Below are positions 8,151 through 26,305 of a stretch of DNA of 62,182 nucleotides, one piece after another. The stretch is taken from assembly GCA_045539625.1 (NCBI GenBank), contig JAZQFS010000125.1, positions 1 through 62,182 of the forward strand. The letters run 5' to 3'. This DNA comes from Eubacteriales bacterium. GTDB taxonomy: Bacteria; Bacillota; Clostridia; Oscillospirales; CAG-382. Every line of letters begins with the position of its first letter. Within the stretch, counting starts at the first letter, position 1. The notes beneath the pieces are model-generated. The model saw nothing but the letters and a program-made list of their open reading frames with translations. It was not told the DNA's origin and did not search any database. The position numbers were made by a program, and so were the translations under genes.

Positions 8151-10241
8151 TTAGAAGCAGTCTTTTCTTGAAAGATTGAGTCTGCCCTTGTCGTCGATTT
8201 CAAGAACCTTAACCTTGATTTCGTCGCCAACGGTTACAACGTCTTCAACCTTTTCAACTCGCTTGGAATCAAGCTTTGAAATGTGTACAAGACCTTCCTT
8301 GCCGGGAGCAATTTCAACAAATGCGCCGAAGGACATAATTCTTGTTACCTTGCCTGTGAATATTGCACCGGGTTCGGGATCAAATGCAATTGCTTCAACA
8401 AGCGCCTTAGCCTTAAGACCTGCATTCTTGTCAACTGCTGCAATAAATACTGTTCCGTCGTCCTCAATGTCAATCTTTGCACCTGTCTCAGCAGTAATTG
8501 CCTGAATAACCTTGCCGCCCTTACCGATAACGTCGCCGATCTTTTCGGGATCGATGTTGATTGTAATCATCTTGGGAGCGTATTCGGAAACTTCAGCTCT
8601 GGGCTGTGCGATAGCCTTGAGCATTACTTCGTCAAGGATGTAATCTCTTGCTGTGTGAGTCTGAGCAAAAGCAGCCTTGATGATTTCGGGTGTAAGACCG
8701 TCAATCTTAAGGTCCATCTGAATAGCTGTGATACCCTTCTTTGTACCTGCAACCTTAAAGTCCATATCGCCGAAGAAGTCTTCAAGTCCCTGAATGTCAA
8801 CCATAGTCATCCATCTTTCTCCTTCGGTGATAAGACCGCAGGAAATACCTGCAACGGGTGCTGTAATCGGAACACCTGCATCCATGAGTGCAAGAGTAGA
8901 AGCACAGATTGAACCCTGTGATGTAGAACCGTTGGAGGAAACTACTTCAGAAACAAGTCTGATGGAGTAGGGAAACTCTTCAACGGAAGGAATTACGGGA
9001 ACAAGTGCACGTTCAGCAAGAGCACCGTGACCGATTTCACGTCTGCCGGGACCTCTTGAAGGCTTTGTTTCACCCACAGAGTATGAGGGCATGTTGTAGT
9101 GGTGCATATATCTCTTGTATTCTTCTTCGTCAATACCGTCAAGGAGCTGCTGTTCGCCTACAAGACCGAGGGTAGCAACTGTGAGAACCTGTGTCTGACC
9201 TCGTGTAAAGAGGGCAGAGCCGTGAGTTCTTGGGAGAATACCAACTTCGGAAGCTAAAGGTCTGATTTCATCAAGCTTTCTGCCGTCAACTCTCTTGCCT
9301 TCGTCAAGAAGCCATCTTCTTACAACGAACTTCTGGAGCTTGTAGAGACATTCGCCCATTTCAGCCTTTCTGTCTTCGTCAGGATACTGCTCTGCAACAA
9401 AGGCTTCAACATCGGCGTATACAGCGTTGAGTCTGTCTTCTCTGATGTTCTTGTCATCAGTGTCAAGAGCATACTTTACTTTGTCAATTGCGTATTCGGC
9501 AATCTTGTCGTAAAGGTCGTGGTCGACGTCGCAGGAAGCGTATTCAAACTTCTTCTTGCCGATTTCGCCTGTTACATGGTTGATGAACTTAACGATTTCC
9601 TGGTTGACCTCATGAGCCTTCATAATGGCGTTGAACATATCGTCGTCGGAAATTTCCTTGGCACCTGCTTCAATCATAACAACCTTCTTTTCGGAAGATG
9701 CTACTGTAAGCTCAAGGGTGGAAACTTCTCTCTGCGCCTTTGTGGGGTTGATAATAACTTCGCCGTCAACCATGCCTACAAATACGCTGGATACAGGACC
9801 GTTCCAGGGAATATCGGAAATGGAAAGAGCAAGAGAAGCACCGATAAGACCTGTTACTTCAGGTGAGCAGTCGGGATCAACCGAGAGCACAAGAAGATTA
9901 AGAGTTACGTCGTTTCTCAAATCCTTGGGGAAGAGAGGACGGATAGGTCTGTCGATTACTCTTGAAGTAAGGATAGCCTTTTCGCTGGGCTTGCCTTCTC
10001 TTTTAAGGAAAGAGCCGGGGATTTTGCCGACAGCGTAAAGTCTTTCTTCAAAATCAACGGAAAGGGGAAGGAAGTCAATTCCTTCTCTGGGAGCGGCACT
10101 TGCGGTAGCGGTGGCAAGGATTGCCGTGTCACCGTATCTTACAAGACAAGAGCCGTTTGCAAGCTGAGCAATTTTACCTGTTTCAACGGTAAGCTTTCTG
10201 CCAGCGAGTGTTGTAGAAAATACTCTGTAGTTTTCAAACAT
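8151..10241 (-). CDS. pnp: Polyribonucleotide nucleotidyltransferase
   Basis: RREIGHGALAERAL, GDMDFKVAGT, KH and S1 domains. Confidence 0.98.
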   Translation of the reverse strand: MFENYRVFSTTLAGRKLTVETGKIAQLANGSCLVRYGDTAILATATASAAPREGIDFLPLSVDFEERLYAVGKIPGSFLKREGKPSEKAILTSRVIDRPIRPLFPKDLRNDVTLNLLVLSVDPDCSPEVTGLIGASLALSISDIPWNGPVSSVFVGMVDGEVIINPTKAQREVSTLELTVASSEKKVVMIEAGAKEISDDDMFNAIMKAHEVNQEIVKFINHVTGEIGKKKFEYASCDVDHDLYDKIAEYAIDKVKYALDTDDKNIREDRLNAVYADVEAFVAEQYPDEDRKAEMGECLYKLQKFVVRRWLLDEGKRVDGRKLDEIRPLASEVGILPRTHGSALFTRGQTQVLTVATLGLVGEQQLLDGIDEEEYKRYMHHYNMPSYSVGETKPSRGPGRREIGHGALAERALVPVIPSVEEFPYSIRLVSEVVSSNGSTSQGSICASTLALMDAGVPITAPVAGISCGLITEGERWMTMVDIQGLEDFFGDMDFKVAGTKKGITAIQMDLKIDGLTPEIIKAAFAQTHTARDYILDEVMLKAIAQPRAEVSEYAPKMITINIDPEKIGDVIGKGGKVIQAITAETGAKIDIEDDGTVFIAAVDKNAGLKAKALVEAIAFDPEPGAIFTGKVTRIMSFGAFVEIAPGKEGLVHISKLDSKRVEKVEDVVTVGDEIKVKVLEIDDKGRLNLSRKDCF

Positions 10242-10901: not shown

Positions 10902-12092
10902 TCAATACTTCATTTTCTTTTTCTTCATTCTTCTTATAAACGTGATGATAATAAGAATGGTAAGGGCAAGCCCTAAAATTATGCCCACTATAACAAGCTC
11001 GCTTATGTCAAGTGCGCTTCTCACTTCAATCCAGCTTGAGTCGTACAGTGAGTTGATGTCGCCTGACAGGGCAATGTAGCTTTCGGCATTTTCAAGCTGT
11101 TCGTCGGTAGGATATATTCTTTCGTCCTTGCCAACAATTTCTGATGCCTTCATGTGGGGAGTAAAGTAGCAGATGTATTCACAGTTGGCAACGGCAATTT
11201 CCGTTTCGCAAAGGAAGTTGATGAAAGCCTCGGCGGCTTCCTTGTTCTTTGCACCCTTTGGAATACATATGGAGTCGATGAAAATATTAAAGCCTTCTTC
11301 GGGATAGTAGAAGTCAAGGTCTTCGTTAACGTCCATCATTGAAGCACAGTCGCCTGCATAGTAGGGAGCGGCATACGCCGATTCACCCTCCATCTTGTTG
11401 AAAATCTGATCCATTACATACGCCTGATTTACAAGACGTTGCTTTTTCAGCTCTTCTGTAGCTTTCTGAATTTCATCGGGATTTTCGCTGTTGAGAGAAT
11501 AGCCAAGCTTCTTGAGAGCAATGCCGTATGCATCTCTGGAGTTTGAGAACATAAGAATTGTACCTGCATACTTTTCGTTCCACAGTAAATCCCACGTGCC
11601 GATGTCTTCTTGGTCAACATACTTTGTGTTGTACACAACACCTACCGTACCCCAGGTGTAGGGAACGGAAAACTCGCCTGTTTTGTCAAAGTCGGGCGTT
11701 TTGTACTTGTCATCAATCATGGCGTAATTTGGAATGTTGTCATAATTGATTTTTTCAAGCATATCTTCATTAATCATTCTTGCTATCATATAGTCGGAAG
11801 GAATGATAATGTCGTATCTTGAGTTGCTGGAGGACAGCTTTGCATAAAGGTCCTCGTTTGTTTCGTAGGTGGTGTAGGTAACGTCAATGCCTGACAGCTC
11901 TTCAAATTCGGCTATAACGTCAATAGAGCCTTCGCCGCCGTCGGAAATGTATTCACCCCAGTTGTATACGTTAAGGGTGATGTCCTTGTCACGGAATTTT
12001 GCGTAGTAGCTTTCGTCTTCAACCTCAACCTTGGCACTGACAGTCAAAAGAGTGAGGCAGGAGAGGAGAAATGTAAATAAAACCTTTTTCAT
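10902..12092 (-). CDS. potD: Spermidine/putrescine ABC transporter substrate-binding protein
   Basis: LNVYNWGEYI, YDIIIPSDYM, PYTWGTVG; C-terminal TM helix and basic tail. Confidence 0.93.
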   Translation of the reverse strand: MKKVLFTFLLSCLTLLTVSAKVEVEDESYYAKFRDKDITLNVYNWGEYISDGGEGSIDVIAEFEELSGIDVTYTTYETNEDLYAKLSSSNSRYDIIIPSDYMIARMINEDMLEKINYDNIPNYAMIDDKYKTPDFDKTGEFSVPYTWGTVGVVYNTKYVDQEDIGTWDLLWNEKYAGTILMFSNSRDAYGIALKKLGYSLNSENPDEIQKATEELKKQRLVNQAYVMDQIFNKMEGESAYAAPYYAGDCASMMDVNEDLDFYYPEEGFNIFIDSICIPKGAKNKEAAEAFINFLCETEIAVANCEYICYFTPHMKASEIVGKDERIYPTDEQLENAESYIALSGDINSLYDSSWIEVRSALDISELVIVGIILGLALTILIIITFIRRMKKKKMKY

Positions 12093-12105
12093 ATTCGTTC
12101 CTCCC

Positions 12106-12909
12106 TTACTTTTTTGAAAACGCCGAAGCTTTTCTTTCTTCTTCCTTTTCCTTTTTTGCACCGATAACATTAACAGTTATGAGAATGGCAAAAACGATTA
12201 CAAAAAGAATTGTGGATAAAGCATTGATTTCGGGGCTGATACGCTTTTTTGTCATGGAATAAATGGTAATGGGTAAAGTCTGTGACTCGGGACCCGATGT
12301 AAAGTAGCTGATAATAAAGTCGTCGATGGAGTAGGTAAGAGCCATAAGAGCACCTGTTACAACACCGGGCATAATTTCGGGAAGAACAACCTTGAAAAAT
12401 GCCTGACGTCTGTTGCAGCCGAGGTCCATTGCCGCCTCATACAGATTTACATTCATTTGTCTGAGCTTAGGAAGAACGCTGAGAACAACCGTAGGAAGAC
12501 AGAAGGTGATGTGAGCAAGAATAAGCGTCACATACCCCGGTGTCATTCTGAAGAATGTAAATAACAGCATCAGAGAAATACCCGTTACAATTTCGGGGTT
12601 GAGGTTCTGAAGATAGGTTGCGTCCTTAAGTAAGGATTTGGGAAGCTTTTTCATATTGTGCATACCGAAAGCCGCCGCCGTACCTAAGACCGCCGAAACA
12701 AGAGCCGAAATAAGAGCGATAATAAGAGTGTTGAGAACAGAGGTTAAAATCAGCTCGTTGTGAATAAGCTCGTTGTACCACTTAAAGGAAAAACCTGTCC
12801 ATACGTTGCCCTTTGTTTCGTTGAAGGAAAACATAATGAGCACAAATATGGGAAGATAGAGAAAAGCAAAAACAAGGATAATGTAGAATTTGGAGAGAAA
12901 CTTTTTCAT
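12106..12909 (-). CDS. potC: Polyamine ABC permease
   Basis: EAAMDLG loop, SIDDFIISYF. Confidence 0.93.
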   Translation of the reverse strand: MKKFLSKFYIILVFAFLYLPIFVLIMFSFNETKGNVWTGFSFKWYNELIHNELILTSVLNTLIIALISALVSAVLGTAAAFGMHNMKKLPKSLLKDATYLQNLNPEIVTGISLMLLFTFFRMTPGYVTLILAHITFCLPTVVLSVLPKLRQMNVNLYEAAMDLGCNRRQAFFKVVLPEIMPGVVTGALMALTYSIDDFIISYFTSGPESQTLPITIYSMTKKRISPEINALSTILFVIVFAILITVNVIGAKKEKEEERKASAFSKK

Positions 12910-13730
12910 ACCATCGAATCCTCCATTTCATCGTTGTCAAAGCTGTTGAATATTCCCATGCTGATAAATACAACAACCATAAGAAGTAAGCTTGTTGCCG
13001 CACCGTAGTTGAGGTTGTACTCGTTGCCGAGGAACTGCTGCTGTATAAGGTCTCCGATAAGGAAGCAGTTGCTGCCGCCGAGAAGTCCCGAAATAACAAA
13101 GGTGCTGACAGCGGGTACAAATGTCATTGTAATACCCGTTAAAATACCGGGAAAACTGAGGGGAAGCACGATTTTGGTGATAACCTTTGTGGAGTTACAG
13201 CCTAAATCCTGTGCCGCCTCGATAACGCTTTTGTCAATCTTGGTCATAATTGAGTAAAGGGGCGTTATCATAAATGGCAGATAGTTGTATACCATACCCA
13301 GAACAACGGCAGCTCTGTTGTTGATAAGCTGAAGTCGGGGAAGACCGATGGATGCCAAAAAGTTGTTGATAATACCGTTGTTGTCAAGGATTGTAACCCA
13401 TGCATAGGTACGAAGCAGAAAGTTCATCCACATGGGAAGCATTACCATAAGCAGAAGAAGCCGCTGGGTACGCTTTGAACAGCGTGACATGGTAAATGCA
13501 AGGGGGTAGGCGATAACAAGACAGATAACCGTAGCAATAACAGCAAGATAAACCGAACGGATAAGGACGGGAAAATACTTGCTGGCATTTGCCAGGTTTT
13601 CAATACTTATAACGCCTGTGCTTTTTGAAGTAAAAGCAAAGTAAATAACAAGTAAAAAGGGCATAACCGTAAAGAACAGTACCCATAATACGTAGGGAAA
13701 TGCCGCAAATTTAGAACTGTTTTTCTTCAT
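12906..13730 (-). CDS. potB: Polyamine ABC permease
   Basis: [20 protein letters not shown]. Confidence 0.93.
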
Positions 13731-14820
13731 TTGCCATACCCCCGTCATCTACCTGTGCATCAATAACTACCTTGTTGGATTCTGTCTTGTGCATAATGTG
13801 AATGTCCTCGGGAGTGAGGCTCATACCGATAAAGGCACCGGGCTCTGCGGACTTTGTGGAGTGAATCTTCCACTTTGTGCCGAAGCAGTCAACAATAATT
13901 TCGTAGTGAACGCCCTTGAAGGTAACTGTCTCAACGGTGCCGTCGATGGTGTTTTCACCGGGAGGTCCGAATTTTATGTCTTCGGGACGGATAACAACGT
14001 CAACGGGAGTCATCTTGCCAAAGCCCTTGTCCACACAGACAAAGCGGTTTCCTGCAAACTCAACGTCAAAGTCGTCGTGCATAAGTCCCGATACAATGTT
14101 GCTCTCGCCAATAAACTTTGCAACAAAGGCATTGACAGGCTCGTTGTAGATGTCCTGAGGAGTACCGATCTGGTCGATAACGCCGCCGTTCATAACAACA
14201 ATTCTGTCGCTCATTGTAAGAGCTTCTTCCTGGTCGTGGGTAACATATATAAAAGTAATTCCAAGCTGCTGCTGAATCTTTTTAAGCTCAATCTGCATTT
14301 CTTTTCTCAGCTGTAAGTCAAGTGCACCCAGGGGCTCGTCAAGAAGCAGCATTCTCGGGTGATTAATCAAAGCACGTGCAATAGCCACTCGCTGCTGCTG
14401 ACCGCCCGAAAGGTAGTCAACACGCTTTGCCCCGTAGTTTTTGAGGTTAACCATTTCAAGCATTTCCATAACACGCTTGTGTACCTCGTTGTCGGGAGTC
14501 TTTTTAAGACGCAGACCGAAGGCTATGTTTTCGTATACGTTTAAATGTTGGAAAAGTGCATATTTCTGGAAAACAGTGTTTACCTGTCTTTTGTACGGCG
14601 GCACCTTGTTTATAAGCTTGCCGTCAAAATACACATTTCCCTCATTAGGCTCAATAAAACCTGCAATTATTCGCAGAGTTGTGGTTTTACCGCATCCCGA
14701 GGGACCAAGTAAAGTAATAAATTCCTTGTCGTGAATGTCAAGGTTGATTCCTTTCAGAATCTTTTCATCGTCGTATTTAACTACGAGATTTTCCAATTTT
14801 ACAATCACACTTTTGTCCAA
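13711..14820 (-). CDS. potA: Polyamine ABC transporter ATPase
   Basis: [32 protein letters not shown]-like C-terminus; TTG 14820 is 8 nt after GGAGG. Confidence 0.95.
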
Positions 14821-14828
14821 TCCTAACA

Positions 14829-14940
14829 CCTCCGTACCGTGTTGCTGTGCGGTACATTTTCTGCTGTATGATTACAGCTTGCTACGGAAACCCGTCTTTT
14901 GCAACATCAGGATTAAGACGAATTTGCACCCGTAACAAAT
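14829..14940 (-). ncRNA. Structured 5' leader of potABCD, candidate cis-regulatory RNA/riboswitch
   Basis: Four helices, complementary loops (UGUUGC/GCAACA) and an alternative anti-SD pairing; see findings. Confidence 0.55.
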
Positions 14941-14947
14941 CACGATA

Positions 14948-14976
14948 ATAATACTTATTTTGTCGAAAAAAATCTA
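14948..14976 (-). promoter_or_regulatory. Putative sigmaA promoter of the pot operon
   Basis: TAGATT-17 bp-TATTAT, placing +1 near 14940. Confidence 0.5.
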
Positions 14977-15070
14977 CTGCTTAACGATAAATAAAATGTG
15001 AATAATATTAACAATTTTCAAAATAAATCTTATGTTTAGTCATTTTTGGGCATTATACATCGTTATATGC

Positions 15071-15104
15071 AAAAAAAAGAGCCGCACCTTTTAAGATGCA
15101 GCTC
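15071..15104 (-). terminator. Intrinsic terminator after carB
   Basis: gagctgcatctt-aa-aaggtgcggctc then T8 on minus strand. Confidence 0.85.
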
Positions 15105-15127
15105 CCAATATTGTTGGGTATATATAC

Positions 15128-18100
15128 TTAAATCACAATTTCGCCCGTGAAGGTGATTTCGGCATTACCTGAAAGGAATACGCCCTCGTCTGTGTATCTT
15201 ACAATAAGGTCGCCGCCCTTTAGCTTTACGGTAATGTCTGTGTTCTTTTTGCAGTAGCCGCAAAGACAAGCCGCAACCGCCGCCGCACATGCACCTGTAC
15301 CGCACGCCATTGTTTCGCCGTTGCCACGCTCCCAAACACGCATCTTGAGAGTGTTTTCGTTGAGCACCTTTACAAACTCGGTGTTCACTCTTTCGGGGAA
15401 TAATTCGTGGCTTTCAAACATAGGACCTATTGTTGATACGTCTAAGTTTTCAAGGCTTTCGTCAGCACCGAAGAATACAACGCAGTGAGGGTTACCTATG
15501 GACACGCAGGTGATTCTGTAAGGTCTGTAGCCAACGTGAATGGGGAACGCCACAACCTTTTCGCCGGGAAGCGTCACGGGAATGTTTTCGGGATTGAGAA
15601 TTACCTTGCCCATATCAACACATGCAGACTGAACAACGCCCTGCTTAACCTCAAGAGCAACCTTCTTTACGCCCACGGGAGTTTCTATTGAGATGTCAGT
15701 TTTGTCAACCATGCCGTTGTCGTAGAGATACTTACCTACACATCTCAATGCGTTGCCGCTCATCATACCCGGTGTGCCGTCCTTGTTGTAGATAGTCATC
15801 TTAGCATCGGCAACCTTGGATTTTCTGATAAGAACAACACCGTCTCCGCCGATACCGAAGTGTCTGTCGGACAGCATTACGGCAAGTCCCTCGGGATTGT
15901 TGATTTTCTGCTTAAAGCAGTTAAAGTAAATGTAGTCATTTCCGCAGCCCTGCATCTTTGTAAACTGAAGCTTTTCTTTTTCGCTTCTCATATCGTTGAT
16001 GTTTACAAGCTCTGTAGAAACTGAGGTGTATCTTGATGTTAAGCTGTCTGCAACTGCGTGAGCCGTGTCTATGGCAGTAAGACAGGGGATACTTCTTTCA
16101 ATAGCCTTACGTCTTAAAATTACACTGTTTCTTGTGGGGATTCTGCCGTGGTCGCTTGTTGAAATAACGTAGTCAACCGCACCTTTGTCCATAAGAGCGA
16201 GCCTGTCTTCGCTGTTTTCCACGATTTCCACGGGAATGTCGGCGTTCTGGATAACCTTGCCCGTTCCGTCGGAGGCATAAATCTTAAAGCCGTTTTCGTG
16301 GAACTTTTCGGCAACGTCAACAATTTCCAGCTTGTCGCTGTTTCTTACCGTGATAAGAACTCCGCCCTTGGTGTGATTCATCTTGTAGCCTGCTGCAATA
16401 AGACCTTTACAGATAGCTTCCTTGATGGTGCTTGCAATACCTAAAACTTCACCTGTGGATTTCATTTCGGGACCGAGCATACTGTCAACACCGTGGAGCT
16501 TTTCAAAGGAGAATACAGGCACCTTTACGGCAACATAGGGCGAATCGGGATAAATGCCCGTTCCGAAGCCCATGCTTTCAAGGCTTTCGGTGTTTTCAGG
16601 CTCATTTTCCTTGCCAATCATTGTTCTTGTCGCAAGGTCAACCATAGGTATGCCTGTTACTTTGCTGATGTAAGGAATTGTTCTTGAAGAACGGGGATTA
16701 ACTTCAATTACATAAAGCTGTTCGTTGTTGATGAGGTACTGAATGTTTACAAGACCTCTTGTTTCAAGAGCAACTGCAAGCTTCTTTGTGCAGTCAAGCA
16801 CTTCTTCACGCATCTTGTCGCTGATACGCTTTGCAGGGTATATGGCAATTGAGTCGCCTGAGTGTACGCCTGTACGTTCAACGTGCTCCATAATACCGGG
16901 AATAAGAATGTCCTTGCCGTCGCAAATGGCGTCAACCTCAATTTCAAGTCCCATAAGATACTTGTCGATAAGAATGGGGTTCTTGTCGGTGTGGGTAAGG
17001 ATTATTTTCATATATTCCTTGATGTCATCGGGATTCTGAGCGATGATCATATTCTGACCGCCGAGAACATATGAAGGACGCATAAGAACGGGATAGCCGA
17101 TTTTGTCAGCAACCGACAGCGCTTCTTCTTCGGTAAATACCGTACAGCCCACGGGACGCTTGATGTTAAGCTTTTCAAGAAGAGCATCAAATATCTTTCT
17201 GTCTTCCGCCGCATCAATGCTTGAAGCACCCGTACCGAGAATCTTTATTCCGTTTTTGTCAAGGAAGCTTGTAAGCTTGATAGCTGTCTGACCGCCGAAA
17301 GCAACAACCGCACCGTAAGGCTTTTCGGTCTGTATAATGCTCATTACGTCCTCGTCTGTAAGAGGCTCAAAGTAAAGTCTGTCAGCCGTGTCAAAGTCTG
17401 TTGAAACGGTTTCGGGATTGTTGTTTACGATTACAACCTCGTAGCCAAGCTTTTTAAGTGAACGTACACAGTGAACGGAAGCATAGTCAAATTCGATACC
17501 CTGACCGATTCTGATAGGACCTGAGCCGAATACGATAATTGTTTTCTTTCTGTCCTTTTTGTTTGCAAGGAATTCGGCAGCTTCGTTTTCTTCGTCGAAG
17601 GTGGAGTAGAAGTAAGGTGTTTCTGCTGAGTATTCCGCAGCACAGGTGTCAACCATCTTGAAGGAAGCATACTTTTTGTTCTGTATCTTGCAGCCCGAAA
17701 GGTTTTCAATGTGCTTGTCGGGGAAGCCCATACGCTTTGCCGCCATATAAAGCTCGTCGGTGAGAACACCCTTCTGAAGCTCACGCTCCATACCGAGAAT
17801 GTTTGTAAGCTTTGTAAGGAAGAATTTGTCTATTTTGGTAAGCTCGTGAATGAATTCAATACTCTTGCCTCTCTTTAAGAATTCGTAAATGATAAAGAGA
17901 CGCTCGTCGGTACATTCTTTGAGACTTGCAAGCAAGTCCTCGTCGGAAACATCTGCAAGATTGTCCTGATTGAGGCTCATGTGCTTGATTTCGGCACCTC
18001 TTACAGCCTTCATAAGAGCTTCTTCAAAGCACTGACCGATGGACATAACCTCGCCCGTTGCCTTCATCTGTGTGCCCAGCTTTCTCTTTGCATAAACAAA

Positions 18101-19192
18101 CTTGTCAAAGGGCCACTTGGGGAACTTTACAACTACATAGTCGATTGTAGGCTCAAAGCAGGCAACGGTTTTGCCCGTTACCGCATTCTGAATTTCGTCA
18201 AGAGTGTAGCCTATTGCAATTTTTGTAGCAACCTTTGCGATTGGGTAGCCTGTTGCCTTTGAAGCAAGTGCAGATGAACGGGAAACTCTGGGGTTAACCT
18301 CAATTACCGCATATTCAAAGGAGTCGGGCTTGAGAGCAAACTGACAGTTACAGCCGCCTTCAACCTCAAGAGCGTTAACAATCTTGAGAGCCGCTTTTCT
18401 CAGCATTGAATATTCCTTGCTTGAGAGGGTAAGAGCGGGAGCTGCAACTATGGAGTCGCCTGTGTGAATACCTACAGGGTCAAAGTTTTCCATGGAGCAA
18501 ACGGTAATGGAATTGCCCTTGCTGTCACGGATAACCTCAAATTCGATTTCCTTCCAGCCCGAAATACACTTTTCAACAAGAATCTGTGTAATGGGGGAAA
18601 GTCGAAGACCGTTTGTACCGATTTCGGTAAGCTCTTCAACGTTTTCCGCAATACCGCCGCCTGTACCGCCCAAAGTAAATGCGGGACGTACAATTACGGG
18701 GTAGCCGATTTCTTCTGCAAAGGCAAGAGCGCTGTCAAGATCGGTTACAACCTTTGAAGGGATAATAGGCTGGTCAATGGACTCCATGGTGTCCTTGAAC
18801 ATCTGTCTGTCCTCGGCCTTGTCAATTGTTTCGGGCTTTGCACCGAGAAGCTTTACGCCCATCTTGTCAAGGAAGCCGTCCTTTGCAAGCTGCATTGAAA
18901 GGGTAAGACCTGTCTGTCCGCCAAGGGAGGAAAGAAGGCTGTCGGGACGTTCCTTTTCTATAATTCTCTTAACTGTTTCAAGGTTGAGAGGCTCGATGTA
19001 AATTTTGTCGGCCATTATGTTGTCTGTCATAATGGTAGCGGGGTTGGAGTTGACGAGGATAACCTCAAGACCTGCTTCCTTAAGAGCACGGCAAGCCTGA
19101 GTTCCCGCATAGTCAAACTCAGCCGCCTGACCGATAACGATAGGACCTGAGCCTATCACCATAACACGCTTTAATTCTTTATTTAACGGCAT
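15128..19192 (-). CDS. carB: Carbamoyl-phosphate synthetase large subunit fused to a C-terminal diaminopimelate epimerase (DapF)-like domain
   Basis: GSGPIVIGQAAEFDY, two ATP-grasp units, MGS domain, then FTKMQGCGNDY...GNPHCV...RVWERGNGETMACGTG. Confidence 0.95.
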   Translation of the reverse strand: MPLNKELKRVMVIGSGPIVIGQAAEFDYAGTQACRALKEAGLEVILVNSNPATIMTDNIMADKIYIEPLNLETVKRIIEKERPDSLLSSLGGQTGLTLSMQLAKDGFLDKMGVKLLGAKPETIDKAEDRQMFKDTMESIDQPIIPSKVVTDLDSALAFAEEIGYPVIVRPAFTLGGTGGGIAENVEELTEIGTNGLRLSPITQILVEKCISGWKEIEFEVIRDSKGNSITVCSMENFDPVGIHTGDSIVAAPALTLSSKEYSMLRKAALKIVNALEVEGGCNCQFALKPDSFEYAVIEVNPRVSRSSALASKATGYPIAKVATKIAIGYTLDEIQNAVTGKTVACFEPTIDYVVVKFPKWPFDKFVYAKRKLGTQMKATGEVMSIGQCFEEALMKAVRGAEIKHMSLNQDNLADVSDEDLLASLKECTDERLFIIYEFLKRGKSIEFIHELTKIDKFFLTKLTNILGMERELQKGVLTDELYMAAKRMGFPDKHIENLSGCKIQNKKYASFKMVDTCAAEYSAETPYFYSTFDEENEAAEFLANKKDRKKTIIVFGSGPIRIGQGIEFDYASVHCVRSLKKLGYEVVIVNNNPETVSTDFDTADRLYFEPLTDEDVMSIIQTEKPYGAVVAFGGQTAIKLTSFLDKNGIKILGTGASSIDAAEDRKIFDALLEKLNIKRPVGCTVFTEEEALSVADKIGYPVLMRPSYVLGGQNMIIAQNPDDIKEYMKIILTHTDKNPILIDKYLMGLEIEVDAICDGKDILIPGIMEHVERTGVHSGDSIAIYPAKRISDKMREEVLDCTKKLAVALETRGLVNIQYLINNEQLYVIEVNPRSSRTIPYISKVTGIPMVDLATRTMIGKENEPENTESLESMGFGTGIYPDSPYVAVKVPVFSFEKLHGVDSMLGPEMKSTGEVLGIASTIKEAICKGLIAAGYKMNHTKGGVLITVRNSDKLEIVDVAEKFHENGFKIYASDGTGKVIQNADIPVEIVENSEDRLALMDKGAVDYVISTSDHGRIPTRNSVILRRKAIERSIPCLTAIDTAHAVADSLTSRYTSVSTELVNINDMRSEKEKLQFTKMQGCGNDYIYFNCFKQKINNPEGLAVMLSDRHFGIGGDGVVLIRKSKVADAKMTIYNKDGTPGMMSGNALRCVGKYLYDNGMVDKTDISIETPVGVKKVALEVKQGVVQSACVDMGKVILNPENIPVTLPGEKVVAFPIHVGYRPYRITCVSIGNPHCVVFFGADESLENLDVSTIGPMFESHELFPERVNTEFVKVLNENTLKMRVWERGNGETMACGTGACAAAVAACLCGYCKKNTDITVKLKGGDLIVRYTDEGVFLSGNAEITFTGEIVI

Positions 19193-20267
19193 TGAAGTTT
19201 ACCTCCTTGACAGTATCGAGAAATTGTTCGTAAAGTGATTTTTCGCCTGTTGAAGACTCGGTTGTGTCGGGCCTGAACTGGCAAGTTATAACGGGCATAT
19301 CCGTGTACTTTAAGCCTTCGACGGTTTTGTCGTTGGCGTTTTCGTATGATATTACAGCACCCTTTGGCAGCTTGTCTGCACATACACAGTAGCCGTGATT
19401 CTGAGTGATGATGCTGAGAACTCCGCTTTGTGTGTTTTTGCAGGGACCGCTTGCACCTCTGTGTCCGTACTTGAGCTTGAAGGTGTCGCCGCCCTTTGCA
19501 AGAGCAATAAGAAGATGACCGAGACCCAGACCGAACATTGGCACATTCTTTTCGCAAAGCTTTGAGATTTCGGCGATTGCATCCTTGTTGTCCTTGGGAT
19601 TGCCGGGGCCGTCGGAAATAACTATTCCGTCAGGCTGTATTTCGAGTAAATCCTCAGCCTTGCTGTCGGCGGAAAATACGTAAACGTCGCAGTCAAGTGA
19701 GGCGAAGGTATCAATTACGCTCTTGCCTGTGCCGAAATCGTAAAGAGCAAGCTTTGTCTTTGACAGAGGATGAGTGTAAACCGCATTTTCAAGTCCGAGA
19801 GCCGATACGGGGTTTTCGCACTTGTGAGCCTTTATCTGCTTTATAAGTGAATCAATGTCCGAGGCTTCAGAGCAAATCATGGCGTTCATTGAGCCTTCTT
19901 CACGTAAAACTCTTGTGAGTGCTCTTGTGTCAATTCCGCATATTCCCACAACGCCGCTGTTTTTGAGGTATTCGTCAAGTGTGCCCTCGCATCTGAAGTT
20001 TGAAGGAGCGTCGCACATTTCTCTTACAACATAGCCTGCGACCGTTGCCTTTTCGCCTTCAAAGTCCTCGGCGATAACACCGTAGTTACCAATCATGGGG
20101 AAGGTCTGCACAACAATCTGACCGAAGTTGTTTTTGTCGGTAAGAGTTTCAAGATAACCCACCATACCTGTGTTGAATACAGCTTCGCCAAGGGCTGTGC
20201 CTTCCTTGCCGATGGAAGTGCCTTCAAAGACCTTTCCGTTTTCTAAAATCAAATAAGCTTTTGACAC
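19179..20267 (-). CDS. carA: Carbamoyl-phosphate synthetase small subunit, glutaminase triad degenerate
   Basis: AYLILENGKVFEG, FNTGMVGY, GIDTRALTR, QNHGY; FGLGLGHL and QFRPD replace FGICLGHQ and QFHPE; GTG 20267 after GGAGG. Confidence 0.93.
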   Translation of the reverse strand: MSKAYLILENGKVFEGTSIGKEGTALGEAVFNTGMVGYLETLTDKNNFGQIVVQTFPMIGNYGVIAEDFEGEKATVAGYVVREMCDAPSNFRCEGTLDEYLKNSGVVGICGIDTRALTRVLREEGSMNAMICSEASDIDSLIKQIKAHKCENPVSALGLENAVYTHPLSKTKLALYDFGTGKSVIDTFASLDCDVYVFSADSKAEDLLEIQPDGIVISDGPGNPKDNKDAIAEISKLCEKNVPMFGLGLGHLLIALAKGGDTFKLKYGHRGASGPCKNTQSGVLSIITQNHGYCVCADKLPKGAVISYENANDKTVEGLKYTDMPVITCQFRPDTTESSTGEKSLYEQFLDTVKEVNFNAVK

Positions 20268-20309
20268 GAATAATACCTCCAAATCTATAATAAACAAATA
20301 ATAAACTCT

Positions 20310-20341
20310 AAAAAAACAGGTGTCGGAAATACCAACACCTG
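20310..20341 (-). terminator. Attenuator-type terminator in the carA leader
   Basis: caggtgttgg-tattt-ccgacacctg followed by T7, 43 nt before the carA start. Confidence 0.85.
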
Positions 20342-20354
20342 AAAAAAGCAATAA

Positions 20355-20471
20355 CTATACCTGCATTATCTGAGAAACTGAGATAATGAGGCAATTTGTC
20401 ATGTTAGGTGAAAAAAGGGAATAGGACGCCGCAAAAGGGGTTACGCTTTGCTTGCACGACATCTTCATCAT
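20355..20471 (-). CDS. Putative 38-aa leader peptide (uORF) of carAB
   Basis: SD GAAAGGTGA, then MMKMSCKQSVTPFAASYSLFSPNMTNCLIISVSQIMQV*, between promoter and terminator. Confidence 0.5.
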   Translation of the reverse strand: MMKMSCKQSVTPFAASYSLFSPNMTNCLIISVSQIMQV

Positions 20472-20533
20472 AATAATCACCTTTCACATTTATTGAAAGA
20501 CGAACTTCAAAAAGCTCTGCTTTCTGAAAATAT

Positions 20534-20562
20534 ATTATACAATAATTTGCCGGTTTTGTCAA
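20534..20562 (-). promoter_or_regulatory. Consensus sigmaA promoter of carAB
   Basis: TTGACA-17 bp-TATAAT. Confidence 0.88.
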
Positions 20563-20722
20563 TACGTTTTTTTTATATTTCACGCCGATATTTTACAATA
20601 TTTTCACTCTGCTTTTATACAAGTTGACAAAAAGCAAAAAGTATCAAAAGAGTAAAAGACGGTACTTGAAATTCCGTGCTTAAAATGATACAATGTTATA
20701 AACACAAATCGAAAGGAAAAAT

Positions 20723-21067
20723 ATGATGGGATTTCTTGATAACCTTAAAAACAAACTGTCGCCCGTGTCAAAAAACGCAAAGCAGTCAAGAGCCATAGCC
20801 TCAAAGCTCAATGACAGCCACATAAAATACGCAAGCGACAAGACAGACGGCGAAGAAATCATAGTCGGCAGAAGCGGTCACGTAAACATTGTTGACGGAG
20901 ATTGCTTTGAGCTGGTGTTCGGCGTTGAGAGCATCTTTAAATTCAAAATAGACGAAATGACCATATGGGAATTTATGAGCCTTGACGGAGCAACCGTCGG
21001 CGGCACCGACCTTAATACAGGCAAAGAAAAGACCTTTATCCTGTACTACGATAAGCACCTGACATAA
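20723..21067 (+). CDS. Hypothetical protein
   Basis: SD GAAAGGA; upstream TTGAAA-17-TACAAT promoter. Confidence 0.75.
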   Translation: MMGFLDNLKNKLSPVSKNAKQSRAIASKLNDSHIKYASDKTDGEEIIVGRSGHVNIVDGDCFELVFGVESIFKFKIDEMTIWEFMSLDGATVGGTDLNTGKEKTFILYYDKHLT

Positions 21068-21070
21068 TAA

Positions 21071-21613
21071 TTATTTGCAGAAATTTTCGATGTAGTTGTC
21101 AATAGCCGATTCGATAATCTTTACGGCCTCCTCGCGTCCCTTTACCTCGTCAACGGCAGTTGTTTTGTGCTCAAGGTTCTTGTAAACCGTGAAAAAGTGC
21201 TTCATCTCGTCGAAGATGTGCATGGGAAGCTGGTCAATATCAGTGTACATATTGTAGTTTGGATCATTGAAGGGAATGGCGATAATCTTTTCGTCGTTTC
21301 TGCCGTTGTCAACCATGGTGATAACGCCGATGGGGTAGGCACGTACAAGCGTCAGCGGCTCAAGAGGCTCAGCACACACAAGAAGGACGTCCAACGGGTC
21401 TCCGTCATCACCGTAGGTGCGGGGAATAAAGCCGCAGTTTGCAGGATAGTGGGTTGATGTATAAAGAATTCTGTCCAGCATAATGTAGCCTGTTTCCTTG
21501 TCAAGCTCGTACTTCTTTTTGCTGTTTTTGGATATTTCGATAACGCAGATAAAATCCTCACTGCTTATTCTTTTTGGTGAAATGTCATGCCAGATGTTTG
21601 ACACATTAATCAT
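21071..21613 (-). CDS. ppa: Family I inorganic pyrophosphatase
   Basis: KYELDKE, DGDPLDV, DEKIIA, HFFTVYK; start may be GTG 21604. Confidence 0.93.
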   Translation of the reverse strand: MINVSNIWHDISPKRISSEDFICVIEISKNSKKKYELDKETGYIMLDRILYTSTHYPANCGFIPRTYGDDGDPLDVLLVCAEPLEPLTLVRAYPIGVITMVDNGRNDEKIIAIPFNDPNYNMYTDIDQLPMHIFDEMKHFFTVYKNLEHKTTAVDEVKGREEAVKIIESAIDNYIENFCK

Positions 21614-21682
21614 TCCTTTCTGTAGTTGATTGAATTATAGCATAATTCGGTGAAAAATTCAATACAATTTTACTTAATTTGC

Positions 21683-21711
21683 TTGACAGAGGCATATTTA
21701 TATAATAAAAT
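21683..21711 (+). promoter_or_regulatory. sigmaA promoter of rubrerythrin
   Basis: TTGACA-17 bp-TAAAAT. Confidence 0.7.
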
Positions 21712-22540: not shown

Positions 22541-22762
22541 ATGAAAAAGCTTCACCGTTCAAAGAAAAACAGATGGCTCACAGGTCTTTGCGGAGGACTC
22601 GGCGAGTATTTTAACATTGATCCCATAATAATCAGAATAGTTGCGGTTTTGCTTGAGCTGTCAATATTCGGACTTATTGCGTATTTTCTGCTGTCCTATT
22701 ATGTTCCCGAGGACGACGGCGTAATAGAGGCGCAGTCGACAGATGCAGATGAAACAAAATGA
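22541..22762 (+). CDS. PspC domain protein
   Basis: KKLHRSKKNRWLTGLCGGLGEYFNIDPIIIRI. Confidence 0.88.
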   Translation: MKKLHRSKKNRWLTGLCGGLGEYFNIDPIIIRIVAVLLELSIFGLIAYFLLSYYVPEDDGVIEAQSTDADETK

Positions 22763-23438
22763 GCTTTGCCACAGGGTAAGACAGTACCTTTTTTCCTGTG
22801 CCGATTTGCAATACCGTGATTTTCAATCAAAGCTTATGCCTACCGTGGATAAGGAGAAAATAATCGGCGTGCGTACTCCCTTTCTCAGAAAATATGCGAA
22901 AGAGCTTTTCAAAAGCGGTGAGTACCAAGAGTTTCTTTCTGACCTTCCCCATAAATATTATGAAGAGGATAATCTTCACGGCTTTCTGCTTGAACAGATT
23001 TCAGACGCCGATGAGTGCATTTTGCGCCTTGATGAATTTCTGCACTTTGTTGATAACTGGGCAACCTGTGACGGCATAAAGCCACGGTGCTTTAAGAAAA
23101 ATCCCGATAAAGCACTGATGGCGGCATACAGGTGGATTGACGGAAAAGAAATCTATGTTGTCCGCTTCGGCATCGGTGTTCTGATGAATTATTTTCTTGA
23201 CGGTAATTTTGATGAACGCTTTTGTGAGAGGGTTGCTTCGGTACACAGCGGCGAGTACTATATCAATATGATGTGCGGCTGGTATTTTGCAACGGCGCTT
23301 GCAAAGCAGTATGACACGGCAATAGTGTATCTTCGTGACAGACGCCTTGATGAAACTGTGCATAAAATTACGGTACGTAAGGCAATAGAGAGCTTTCGTA
23401 TAAGCGAAGAGAAGAAAAAGTATATACGTTCCTTGTAA
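22749..23438 (+). CDS. DNA alkylation repair protein (AlkD-like)
   Basis: IGVRTPFLRK, VDNWATCD, YYINMMCGWYFATALAKQ. Confidence 0.85.
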   Translation: MKQNELCHRVRQYLFSCADLQYRDFQSKLMPTVDKEKIIGVRTPFLRKYAKELFKSGEYQEFLSDLPHKYYEEDNLHGFLLEQISDADECILRLDEFLHFVDNWATCDGIKPRCFKKNPDKALMAAYRWIDGKEIYVVRFGIGVLMNYFLDGNFDERFCERVASVHSGEYYINMMCGWYFATALAKQYDTAIVYLRDRRLDETVHKITVRKAIESFRISEEKKKYIRSL

Positions 23439-23524: not shown

Positions 23525-26278
23525 TTATGCCTTTGTCGCAATAATAACCCTGATTTTTCCGCCCTTTTCGGGAGTTTTGTCGTAGTAAGCTTCGTATGTA
23601 AAATCGCCGATAATGGCATCGTTTAGAGAAATGCTTTTATATGTGCCATCTTTATACTGGAATACTACAACATTGTCCCATATGGGAAATTCGTTGTCTT
23701 CTACATCGTAGACTGTTGTTGCAGTTATAAAATCAAGGTCTTCTACAGCAAACAGGTTTCGGAAATTGCTTACAGCACCGTCTGTATATTGAATTATTAC
23801 CGGGCCTGCTGTGATTTTTTTGCCGGTAAAACTCAGTTTTTTCGTAGTGTGTTCGGTAACGTAAGTTACATGAGATACAGTTGGAGAATCGTCACTATCT
23901 TCTTTTGAGGCTTTTGAAACAGTAGATATAACGCCGTACTCATTCAAATCTCCCGTGAAGTTGTTGAGAATAAGCTCGCTTAAATTGTTGTTTTCGTCAA
24001 AGGAGCAGTACAGAATAAGCTTTGAATAAAGGAAAGCCTCAATGTCAAGCTTTGCACCGTCAAAACGTGAGGGGTAAATCTTTGCAACTGTGGTATCGTT
24101 TATCTCTATAATTTTGCAGTCATCGGCAAAGCGACCTTCGTTGATGGCGTTGATTACAGTGGCAAGAGTGTTTCTGCCCAAGGTTGTTGACTGCTCGGTA
24201 AGCTTCACCGTATCTCCCACGGCAACTCTTACAATGTCGCCGATACCCAAATTCTTGTTGAGGTGCTCATAGGTGTAGGATTTTGTGCTTGTGTCGGTGA
24301 CAGTTACGTATTCTGCGGTATATGTGTCGCCGTCGCTGTCGGTGAACTGCTTTTCTCCACGGCCTGTGACAACGCCGTAGTAAACTCGAGAAACGCTGTC
24401 AACACTCACAACACCTGCAACCTTTCCGTTCATATCAAGCAAAAGCGTTGCCTTGTCTCCCACACGGAAAGCACCGAAGGTGGATAAATCGTAGGAAGCC
24501 TGTGATGTTTCAACGCCGTAGGTGTTGCCCGAAAGGGTGACGGAGGTAGGCGATGACAGGGGAGCTATTGCCTCAATTGTACCGCTTACCGTGTCTCTGT
24601 AAATCCATACCGTGTTAAGTACGGGCGAGAAGTAGTAAACGTCATAGGGTGCAATTTCCTTAGCCTGAATCACAGTGTTGCTCTTGTATACGGTAGCCGA
24701 AGCAAGGTCAAGCGTCAGCTTATCCATGCTGCCGTCCGTTCCTACAATGTACGGACCTTTAAGCGAGCCTGAAACGACCTCGGAATAAGTGGCGTCGTTG
24801 TCCTTCTTTCCGATTTCGTCGGGATTTGCCGACAGTATGCTTATAACCTCGTCGTTCTTGCCGAGGATAAGCTTTACATAATCGTCCGCCTTAAACTGAC
24901 CGTAGGTGGAAACGGCAATTTTTGCTTCATCCGTTGCAAGGGAATAGGTTTTGTTTGCTATGCTGACCGTCGACGAAGAAAGTGATGAAATGTTGCCTGC
25001 AACGGTTTCTCTGTAAACCCAGACGCTGTTAAAGGGCTTTGCATAGTAAAGAACATCAGCGACAGCGGGAGTGTAGCTGTCTGCCGGAACACCGTTTATG
25101 AAAATTTCTGCCGTGTCTGTGTCAAAGGGAATACTGTTCTTCCATAAAGCAATTTCGCTTTCACTTGCTATGTAAAGCGGAAGACTTATAACAGCATCAA
25201 TCATGGATATGTAGGAGGCGTTGTCGGAGTTGTCGGTGATTTTGCTCTTGTCGCCGTCAACTATGTCTGCAACCTCATCGTTAAGACCTAACAGCAAGGT
25301 CACAAAGCTGTGCTTTTCGCTGTATTTTCCGCCGAGAGAAAGCTTGCTTCTTGCTTCGTTTGTTCTGACGGAATAGGTCTTGTTTCCCGTGAGAGTCACA
25401 GCGGAATTTCCGCTTTTTGAGGTGATAATACCTGTTGCGGTTTTTCTGAAGGCGAAAACAGAATTGATTTTTTCGCTGAAATAAATGACGTCGCCTTCCT
25501 TTATCTGCGAAAGGGAAGAGGAAACGCTGTTAAGATTGTACTGCGTTTTGCTGTCAGAACTAAAGCCCGTAATTTCGTCAACGGTTTTGCCCTGTGTGAG
25601 AATAAAGGGACCTTCCAGCTCTTTTTGCAGCAGGGCGTTGTAGTCGATTTTGCATTCGCTGTCTGTTTCGTAGCCGAGGGTTGTGCAGTAAACGGCTCCG
25701 CTTTTGGTTTTTGCAGATAACGTATTGTAAAGCAGAATCATACATTCTTCACGTGTAAGAAGCTGACCTTTAACTGCGGATATGTTTTCATCAAGCTCCT
25801 TTTCGTGGTACTTTTCAAGCTGTGATGAGGGGTATGTACCCTTGAAATCACCTGTTGTGTAGCCGAGAAGACGCAGAACAATGGTTGCCGCTTCCTCTAA
25901 GGTCACATAGCCCGAGGGCTTGAAGGTGCCGTCAAGATAGCCGTTGACAAGTCCTGCCTCAATGGCAGTTGATATAAAGCCTGCACCCCAGAAGTCCGCC
26001 TTGACGTCGGGAAACAGGGAATAGCTGACAACGCTGTTTTTTGCCTTGTCCTTGTTAACAGAGGCGCTTACAGCCATCTTTACAAATTCGGCACGGGTTA
26101 CGTTGCTTGAAAAATTCATATTGCCGTTTTCGTCGCCTGAGGCAATTTCAAGAATTTTTACGGTGTTTATTACTTCGCTGTCGGCAACTGAGGGCACTTC
26201 TTCTGCCAAAGTGGAAAAGGAGACGCAGCAAAGTATGAGAGCAATGCTTAAAATCAGCTTGCAAAAATTTCTTTTCAT
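23525..26278 (-). CDS. Secreted SLH-domain surface protein with three internal repeats
   Basis: Signal peptide; VTRAEFVKM, GYLDGTFKPSGYVTLEEA, LTREEC; repeats DVIYFS..SVFAFR, DVLYYA..SVWVYR, DVYYFS..TVWIYR. Confidence 0.85.
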   Translation of the reverse strand: MKRNFCKLILSIALILCCVSFSTLAEEVPSVADSEVINTVKILEIASGDENGNMNFSSNVTRAEFVKMAVSASVNKDKAKNSVVSYSLFPDVKADFWGAGFISTAIEAGLVNGYLDGTFKPSGYVTLEEAATIVLRLLGYTTGDFKGTYPSSQLEKYHEKELDENISAVKGQLLTREECMILLYNTLSAKTKSGAVYCTTLGYETDSECKIDYNALLQKELEGPFILTQGKTVDEITGFSSDSKTQYNLNSVSSSLSQIKEGDVIYFSEKINSVFAFRKTATGIITSKSGNSAVTLTGNKTYSVRTNEARSKLSLGGKYSEKHSFVTLLLGLNDEVADIVDGDKSKITDNSDNASYISMIDAVISLPLYIASESEIALWKNSIPFDTDTAEIFINGVPADSYTPAVADVLYYAKPFNSVWVYRETVAGNISSLSSSTVSIANKTYSLATDEAKIAVSTYGQFKADDYVKLILGKNDEVISILSANPDEIGKKDNDATYSEVVSGSLKGPYIVGTDGSMDKLTLDLASATVYKSNTVIQAKEIAPYDVYYFSPVLNTVWIYRDTVSGTIEAIAPLSSPTSVTLSGNTYGVETSQASYDLSTFGAFRVGDKATLLLDMNGKVAGVVSVDSVSRVYYGVVTGRGEKQFTDSDGDTYTAEYVTVTDTSTKSYTYEHLNKNLGIGDIVRVAVGDTVKLTEQSTTLGRNTLATVINAINEGRFADDCKIIEINDTTVAKIYPSRFDGAKLDIEAFLYSKLILYCSFDENNNLSELILNNFTGDLNEYGVISTVSKASKEDSDDSPTVSHVTYVTEHTTKKLSFTGKKITAGPVIIQYTDGAVSNFRNLFAVEDLDFITATTVYDVEDNEFPIWDNVVVFQYKDGTYKSISLNDAIIGDFTYEAYYDKTPEKGGKIRVIIATKA

Positions 26279-26305
26279 ATATATTAAATCCTTTCTTTGC
26301 ACGTA

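Follow-up and report, generated by a model that had tools for sequence, protein, structure and literature searches.

A triad-less CarA retained beside a CarB-DapF fusion, and a probably ammonia-dependent carbamoyl-phosphate synthetase, in Oscillospirales

Bacterial carbamoyl-phosphate synthetase (CPS) is classed as the glutamine-using CPS II (PMC6022934), and three reviews (PMC6022934, PMC4655335 and PMC6245113) present the ammonia-only enzyme as a vertebrate speciality. According to PMC4655335, human CPS1 takes free ammonia and carries an inactive glutaminase-like domain, and all CPS types other than CPS1 use glutamine; a bacterial enzyme with a dead small subunit is thus a case not covered there. 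For the glutaminase itself, Cys-269 and His-353 are described as essential for glutamine hydrolysis, which follows a thioester mechanism, in PMC6245113. Here we describe carA, the gene of the CPS small subunit, in a stretch of 62,182 nucleotides from a bacterium of the order Oscillospirales (contig JAZQFS010000125.1, whole stretch referred to as the window). All three catalytic residues of the glutaminase are replaced in its product. From the sequence comparisons given below we consider it likely that this CarA is dead but held under purifying selection as a non-catalytic partner of an intact CarB, and that free ammonia, not glutamine, is what the holoenzyme uses to make carbamoyl phosphate. 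No relevant account of a catalytically dead CarA from bacteria, or of a bacterial CPS that depends on ammonia, came up in full-text searches, whose coverage did not extend to subscription journals and supplements.

The carA gene lies on the minus strand at 19179..20267, with a GTG start at 20267, a TAA stop at 19179 and a GGAGG sequence 8 nt upstream of the start, and it encodes 362 amino acids, a length also seen among its homologues. The N-terminal CPSase small-chain domain (Pfam PF00988; residues 6-131; 19875..20252, minus strand) is well conserved and was matched over profile positions 1-126 of 126 with an E value of 1.8e-49. The class I glutamine amidotransferase fold, which contains the dead active site (PF00117; residues 175-350; 19218..19745, minus strand), was matched over profile positions 2-188 of 190 with an E value of 5.2e-34. 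In a phmmer search against the PDB, residues 173-355 aligned without gaps to residues 194-376 of E. coli CarA (1bxr_B and others; E ~1e-68). In this alignment the nucleophile Cys269 of E. coli CarA is replaced by Gly248 (codon GGT, 19524..19526, minus strand; motif FGLGLGHL), and His353-Pro-Glu355 by Arg332-Pro333-Asp334 (AGG CCC GAC, 19266..19274, minus strand, with AGG at 19272-19274; motif QFRPD). All three class I amidotransferase triad residues, i.e., nucleophile, base and acid, are therefore replaced. In addition, Gln273 is Leu252, and the motif HHGGNHP reads HRGASGP.

The replacements extend beyond the triad. The query CarA has Asn, Gly, Asp and Leu at E. coli Ser47, Lys202, Asn240 and Gln273, where the canonical set is 96-100% conserved. 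E. coli CarA positions 47, 202, 240, 273 and 359 are glutamine-binding and tunnel positions. The original prediction, made from the letters of the window, had called CarA a pseudo-glutaminase on account of four altered motifs (FGLGLGHL, QFRPD, SDGPGNP and HRGASGP). All four are present in the minus-strand translation, and the alignment to E. coli CarA, in which Cys269, His353, Glu355 and Gln273 are all substituted, bore this assignment out; comparison with canonical relatives added further switches at positions that are invariant among them. The description of an intact, full-length open reading frame (ORF) overlapping the carB start was also correct: the frame is open from 20267 to 19179, and its end overlaps the carB ATG by 14 nt (19179..19192, minus strand), so that translation of the two genes is likely coupled.

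Against TIGR01368, the equivalog family of glutamine-hydrolysing CarA, the protein scores 357.7 bits and passes the curated cut-off of 307.35, and annotation pipelines will therefore call a triad-less CarA glutamine-hydrolysing; one clade member (P0036) is so named by NCBI. A systematic annotation error is thereby exposed. In the query genome, designated G000 (the other genomes compared are G001-G013 and similar), two other PF00117 proteins were found: a HisH, whose gene adjoins hisB, and a protein resembling C26-type peptidases. Both keep Cys, His and Glu, so the triad loss is specific to CPS.

A sequencing or assembly error was ruled out as the source of these substitutions. The Gly codon is unchanged in Logan contigs from sequencing runs of three other studies (X1, X3 and X8), and the Arg codon, covered in the X1 and X8 contigs, differs only by a synonymous AGG to AGA change. 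The same substitutions occur in eight further species genomes of the genus. The runs in which the stretch occurs are animal-gut metagenomes, and no RNA run was listed among them. It had been argued earlier that His to AGG needs three base changes and so cannot be a single error. The three base differences are there, and error is indeed not the explanation, but three independent amino-acid-altering events are not required, since one non-synonymous change (CAY to CGY) followed by synonymous steps suffices.

To describe how far the dead form extends, the best 120 clusters at 90% identity were classified together with the query by triad pattern. The dead pattern (G/S...R...D) with an open frame was found in 50 sequences, query included, at 62-100% identity, and the canonical Cys-His-Glu in 54. 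Seventeen fell into other patterns: one clade member with EFRPD, 14 sequences without the Cys, and two with the Cys but without the His. The nucleophile position of the dead clade is mostly Gly, with Ser in six members; Arg stands at E. coli position 353 in 50/50 and Asp at 355 in 46/50. Within the genus, 12 genomes have CarA; the QFRP[DE]-type dead form is present in nine of them, G006 has another dead type, and G007 and G002 have a canonical CarA. All CarAs of the genus adjoin a CarB-DapF fusion wherever the contig allows this to be seen.

Selection on the gene was estimated by the Nei-Gojobori method as the ratio of non-synonymous to synonymous substitution rates (dN/dS) in 28 pairs among eight clade species genomes. 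The ratios, which are rough because dS exceeds 1 in most pairs, were 0.072-0.261 for the CarA amidotransferase domain, 0.034-0.174 for the CarA N-terminal domain, 0.013-0.061 for CarB and 0.023-0.108 for the DapF-like domain. In the least saturated pair, G000-G013, the amidotransferase domain gave a dN of 0.101 and a dS of 0.75 (ratio 0.135). This domain is relaxed relative to CarB, yet far from neutral. The faster evolution of the amidotransferase domain, two to five times that of CarB, and the outright deletion of carA in relatives are what would be expected of a neutral relic heading for loss, a pseudogene in all but reading frame. But an open frame persists throughout the 50 clusters and nine species, down to 62% identity, dN/dS is not near 1, and the start codon, the Shine-Dalgarno sequence and the overlap with carB are conserved among the clade genomes (the 14-nt overlap also follows from the gene coordinates of genus members), so we regard a relic as extremely improbable. 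A decaying pseudogene was likewise rejected on the open frames and the ratios. These data uphold the earlier proposal that the gene is retained and not decaying, and the dN/dS values speak against the neutral evolution that had been named as its refutation.

Compared with the 54 canonical sequences, the clade carries the fixed switches S47N, K202G, N240D, N294S, A315C, G359S, D362G and F367Y (E. coli numbering) in addition to those at 353 and 355; constraint on position 273 is relaxed, with Q, E or L found there. The replaced residues Arg332, Asp219, Ser273 and Cys294, in the numbering of the query, are each invariant in the clade (50/50). Such invariance, together with an amidotransferase-domain dN/dS well below 1, would suit a regulatory sensor, in which glutamine or some other small molecule would still bind at the dead site and its occupancy would be relayed to CarB allosterically, without hydrolysis. 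We nevertheless think a sensor rather unlikely, because the canonically invariant glutamine-site positions 47, 202 and 240 are replaced and 273 is relaxed, and because CarB positions 258 and 262, described below, turn variable and are not fixed on a new residue, which looks like lost rather than new coupling. Cys294 is of further interest, as it stands at E. coli Ala315 in 50/50 clade members versus Ala in 52/54 canonical relatives, and could be the new nucleophile of a neo-functionalised hydrolase that frees ammonia from another amide. The general base His is Arg, however, the old nucleophile elbow carries Gly or Ser interchangeably, and other independent dead lineages lack these residues; we consider such a hydrolase very improbable.

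The partner gene, carB-dapF (15128..19192, minus strand), encodes 1354 amino acids comprising a complete CPS large subunit and a C-terminal DapF-like domain, as judged with Pfam and NCBIfam. The CarB part scores 1444 bits against NF003671 and the DapF-like part 263 bits against TIGR00652. CarB contains both halves of the ATP-grasp region as well as the oligomerisation and MGS-like allosteric domains, and its ammonia gate, Cys232/Ala251/Ala314 (PMC8674909), is intact. CarB alignments revealed two helix residues that vary only where CarA is dead: the fusion reads Ser258...Ser262 (18407..18421, minus strand) at E. coli Asp258 and Gln262. Among the fusions, position 258 is Asp in 9/9 with intact CarA. 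The clade has Ser there; of the three other dead lineages, one has Pro and two have Ser. In a set of 71 CarA-CarB pairs, position 258 is D/N in 31/31 partners of intact CarA versus 7/40 partners of dead CarA, and position 262 is Q in 29/30 versus 7/40, respectively. The FastTree tree implies 17 or more changes of CarA status, and only seven independent pairs rest on well supported branches; position 258 is concordant in about five of them and opposite in none (sign test, median p 0.06). The replacements at 258 and 262 vary by lineage (S, T, G, A, P, E, L and R), and because they differ between lineages the pattern looks like the release of a constraint, not one new solution. Since Arg265 of the same helix lines the ammonia tunnel at the subunit interface, positions 258 and 262 may be read as part of the glutamine-side tunnel or of a coupling surface. 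No paper naming Asp-258 in connection with CPS came up in full-text searching.

The gene content of the genomes bears on where the nitrogen comes from. A single CarA and two CarBs were found in G000 (97% complete, 134 contigs), and tblastn with CarA gave no second copy of it in this genome. The second carB is unfused and lies in a pyr operon, followed by pyrK and then pyrD. It has Ala258 and Asn262, which fits with its having no active partner either. In G001, G005, G009 and G011 (91-98% complete) there is exactly one CarA, which is dead, and one CarB, which is the fusion. Two transcarbamylase genes are present in each of G005, G009 and G011; in G000, argF adjoins argD, and pyrB adjoins pyrE and pyrF. 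No carbamate kinase above the family cut-off was found in the five genomes examined. With one dead CarA and one fusion CarB beside the transcarbamylases, and no carbamate kinase above the cut-off, no other enzyme is seen in several species that could supply two biosynthetic pathways with carbamoyl phosphate than the pair of dead CarA and CarB-DapF. Given a dead site in what is the sole CPS of these four genomes, we infer that free ammonia is the only nitrogen donor. Glutamine synthetase genes are present in G000, so glutamine should be available to the cell, and an unlinked glutaminase might in principle feed CarB with glutamine-derived ammonia, the dead CarA being only a scaffold. Nothing more direct speaks for such a supply. 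HisH and the C26-type protein were the only other PF00117 proteins found in G000, no second CarA was detected by tblastn, and 29 of the 139 CPS-bearing genomes of the order (see below) do without CarA altogether; we give this explanation little credence.

The loss of the triad is not confined to the clade. When 20 fusion operons were placed on a CarB tree, those with dead CarA fell in four separate places, each sister to an intact-CarA operon. Cys-His-Glu is kept in only 39 of the best 150 representatives of 50%-identity clusters, a list that is biased towards the dead query and includes four truncated entries. For an unbiased figure, 151 genomes were drawn evenly from the order, of which 150 had a completeness of at least 90% and no more than 5% contamination. 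CarB was found in 139 of these and CarA in 110; 12 had neither, and 29 had CarB without CarA. The 134 CarA genes of this sample were classified in the best phmmer-matching frame, using MAFFT alignments of sequences from metagenome-assembled genomes (MAGs) in which the motif windows look consistent: 89 have Cys-His-Glu, two have Cys-His-Asp, two are truncated, and 41 have lost one or more triad residues, in most cases by replacement of Cys with Gly. Counted by genome, 72 have only intact CarA, 12 intact plus dead, 22 dead only, two dead plus truncated, and two only the Cys-His-Asp form. Thus, 51-53 of the 139 CPS-bearing genomes are without any intact-triad small subunit (22-24 with triad-less CarA only and 29 CarA-less). 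Judging from these sequences, triad loss arose many times in the order.

In 9/10 CarA-less CarB loci scanned for flanking ORFs the gene order is pyrC-carB-pyrK, which looks like a B. subtilis-type pyr operon minus the gene of the small subunit. An intermediate layout, pyrC-carA(Cys to Gly)-carB, is found in G024. A very divergent CarA-like paralogue with the motifs LGFGLGFR and HFLPC (PF00988, 83-87 bits) also recurs in one family of the order (loci L202-L205 and L059, in G164, G150, G135, G107 and G025). No CarB was found beside it in the two loci examined (G164 and G107).

Taken with the alternatives weighed above, the enzyme most likely runs on free ammonia, in parallel to the human urea-cycle enzyme. 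In this scheme the dead CarA and CarB would still form a complex, NH3 would reach CarB without passing through the old glutamine site, and the small subunit would be kept for the folding, stability, kinetics or allostery of CarB. We infer accordingly a structural or regulatory role for CarA, as had been proposed at the outset. One option is that CarA stabilises the carboxyphosphate and oligomerisation domains of CarB, with which the small subunit is in contact according to PMC6245113. Further options are that it shapes the entry of ammonia or senses a ligand; both stay open because the substituted residues are invariant in the clade and because the CarBs of the pyr operons manage without a small subunit. 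Precedents for the chemistry exist in E. coli, where CarB by itself makes carbamoyl phosphate from ammonia (PMC6245113) and tunnel-blocked CPS variants lose the use of glutamine but keep that of ammonia (PMC4655335).

Several points weigh against an ammonia-dependent enzyme or limit the case for it. The ammonia reaction of the E. coli enzyme needs very high, probably unphysiological concentrations, as stated in PMC6245113. With so high a requirement, a sole ammonia-dependent CPS would imply either a putative kinetic adaptation or a high-ammonia habitat. Since the genomes are MAGs, a second carA could hide in assembly gaps; in G000 itself, the 3.8-kb contig that carries the second carB (C51, locus L003) breaks off inside the gene, at CarB residue 190. 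The invariance of Arg332, Asp219, Ser273 and Cys294 could mean that the pocket has become a new ligand site and is not simply plugged. The roughness of the dN/dS ratios and the small number of independent pairs behind the CarB covariation belong here as well. A more far-reaching version of the ammonia-dependent scheme can be formulated, in which the dead CarA, the remodelled CarB helix (258 and 262) and the changed CarA tunnel positions (E. coli 359 and 362) together make a new solvent-open NH3 port that gives CarB a physiologically useful Michaelis constant (Km) for ammonia, a major order of gut anaerobes has repeatedly converted an enzyme known from textbooks as glutamine-dependent to the use of ammonia, and the crippled DapF-like domain is a second non-catalytic, ligand-sensing module. 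We put this version forward as a speculation that is doubtful as a whole.

The DapF-like domain (residues 1076-1352; 15137..15967, minus strand) has Ser in place of the first catalytic Cys and keeps the second, as seen in PDB alignments. Across 20 fusions (loci L037-L056) the first position is Ser in 10, Ala in six, Gly in two and Cys in two, and the second Cys is present in 20/20. The catalytic cysteines of DapF are Cys73 and Cys217 in E. coli/H. influenzae numbering. The fusion is the sole DapF match in the five genomes examined, all of which have a strong match to meso-diaminopimelate dehydrogenase (~450 bits). Because the first Cys is lost, no other DapF is seen and the dehydrogenase is present, the domain is perhaps non-catalytic, and it may be a second non-catalytic, possibly ligand-binding, module on CPS. 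No relevant paper on such a carB-dapF fusion turned up in a full-text search, which did not reach subscription journals or supplements.

Upstream of carA, a consensus sigma-70-type promoter (TTGACA-17 nt-TATAAT; 20534..20562, minus strand) is conserved in the eight clade genomes aligned. The leader (20268-20562, minus strand) extends for 265 nt after the promoter and is structured, with a fold z-score of -4.2. It contains a 38-codon ORF with its own Shine-Dalgarno sequence (20355..20471, minus strand), which ends 13 nt before the stem of a terminator-like hairpin followed by a T-run (20310..20341, minus strand). The hairpin, a candidate attenuator, is conserved in the clade and sits ~40 nt before carA begins. 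Across the eight clade genomes the layout of the leader is conserved; the sequence of the leader peptide is not. The leader ORF is without Arg codons, and no Rfam family was found in 14800-21700 of the window at E <= 0.1. The carA leader looks like a translation-coupled attenuator, and its T-rich character resembles that of the pyrBI type sensitive to uridine triphosphate (UTP).

The operon ends in a terminator-like hairpin after carB-dapF (15077..15106, minus strand). Downstream of it are genes for a potABCD-type spermidine/putrescine ABC (ATP-binding cassette) transporter and pnp (10902-14829 and 8151-10241, both on the minus strand), and upstream are those for inorganic pyrophosphatase and rubrerythrin. 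With these neighbours, a location of the carA-carB operon inside an arg or pyr cluster was rejected. Three ORFs of the window, at 23525-26302 (minus strand, 925 amino acids), 22743-23438 (plus strand, 231) and 20723-21067 (plus strand, 114), had no NCBIfam match at E <= 1e-5.

As far as the sequences go, this is apparently a widespread, repeatedly evolved, ammonia-dependent form of bacterial CPS. If confirmed, it would be a natural repeated experiment on how an ammonia-tunnel enzyme gets rewired, and it would bear on what a pseudo-enzyme subunit is kept for and on the entry of nitrogen into arginine and pyrimidine synthesis in ammonia-rich guts.

The known systems differ in how closely they approach this locus. 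With E. coli CarA (PDB 1bxr, 1jdb, 1c30 and others) it shares the two-domain architecture, the length, the gene order and the overlap of carA with carB, but its triad is Gly/Arg/Asp, Gln273 is Leu, and positions 47, 202, 240, 294, 315, 359, 362 and 367 are switched. Vertebrate CPS I (human CPS1, PDB 5dot/5dou) likewise keeps an amidotransferase domain without the catalytic Cys, which is Ser294 in CPS1, and the bacterial CarA matches the N-terminal moiety of human CPS1 with an E value of 2e-42 (phmmer against the PDB). CPS I, however, is one polypeptide, needs N-acetylglutamate and keeps the His and Glu, whereas the bacterial subunit is encoded by a separate gene, has all three triad residues replaced and is paired with a CarB carrying a DapF-like domain. 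By analogy, the bacterial CPS would work like CPS I, but it is not a member of that family. The ammonia-adapted CPS III reported for Alcolapia fish (PMC7657897) offers an independent, convergent shift from the glutamine type to ammonia, in an enzyme that is, unlike ours, eukaryotic, single-chain and of the urea cycle.

Two further comparisons concern the tunnel and the small subunit itself. Huang & Raushel in 2000 and Kim & Raushel in 2004 reportedly made variants of E. coli CPS whose ammonia tunnel is blocked or perforated. The clade resembles such engineered variants in altering tunnel-region positions (CarA 359 and 362, CarB 258 and 262), but those are laboratory mutants with an intact glutaminase, whereas in the clade the glutaminase is dead and the change evolutionarily fixed. 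The CarA-less CarBs in the pyr operons of relatives come from the same bacterial order and share the implied dependence on free ammonia. There the small subunit has been deleted, whereas in the clade it is retained under selection, and this retention argues for a residual role of the dead CarA with the CarB-DapF fusion.

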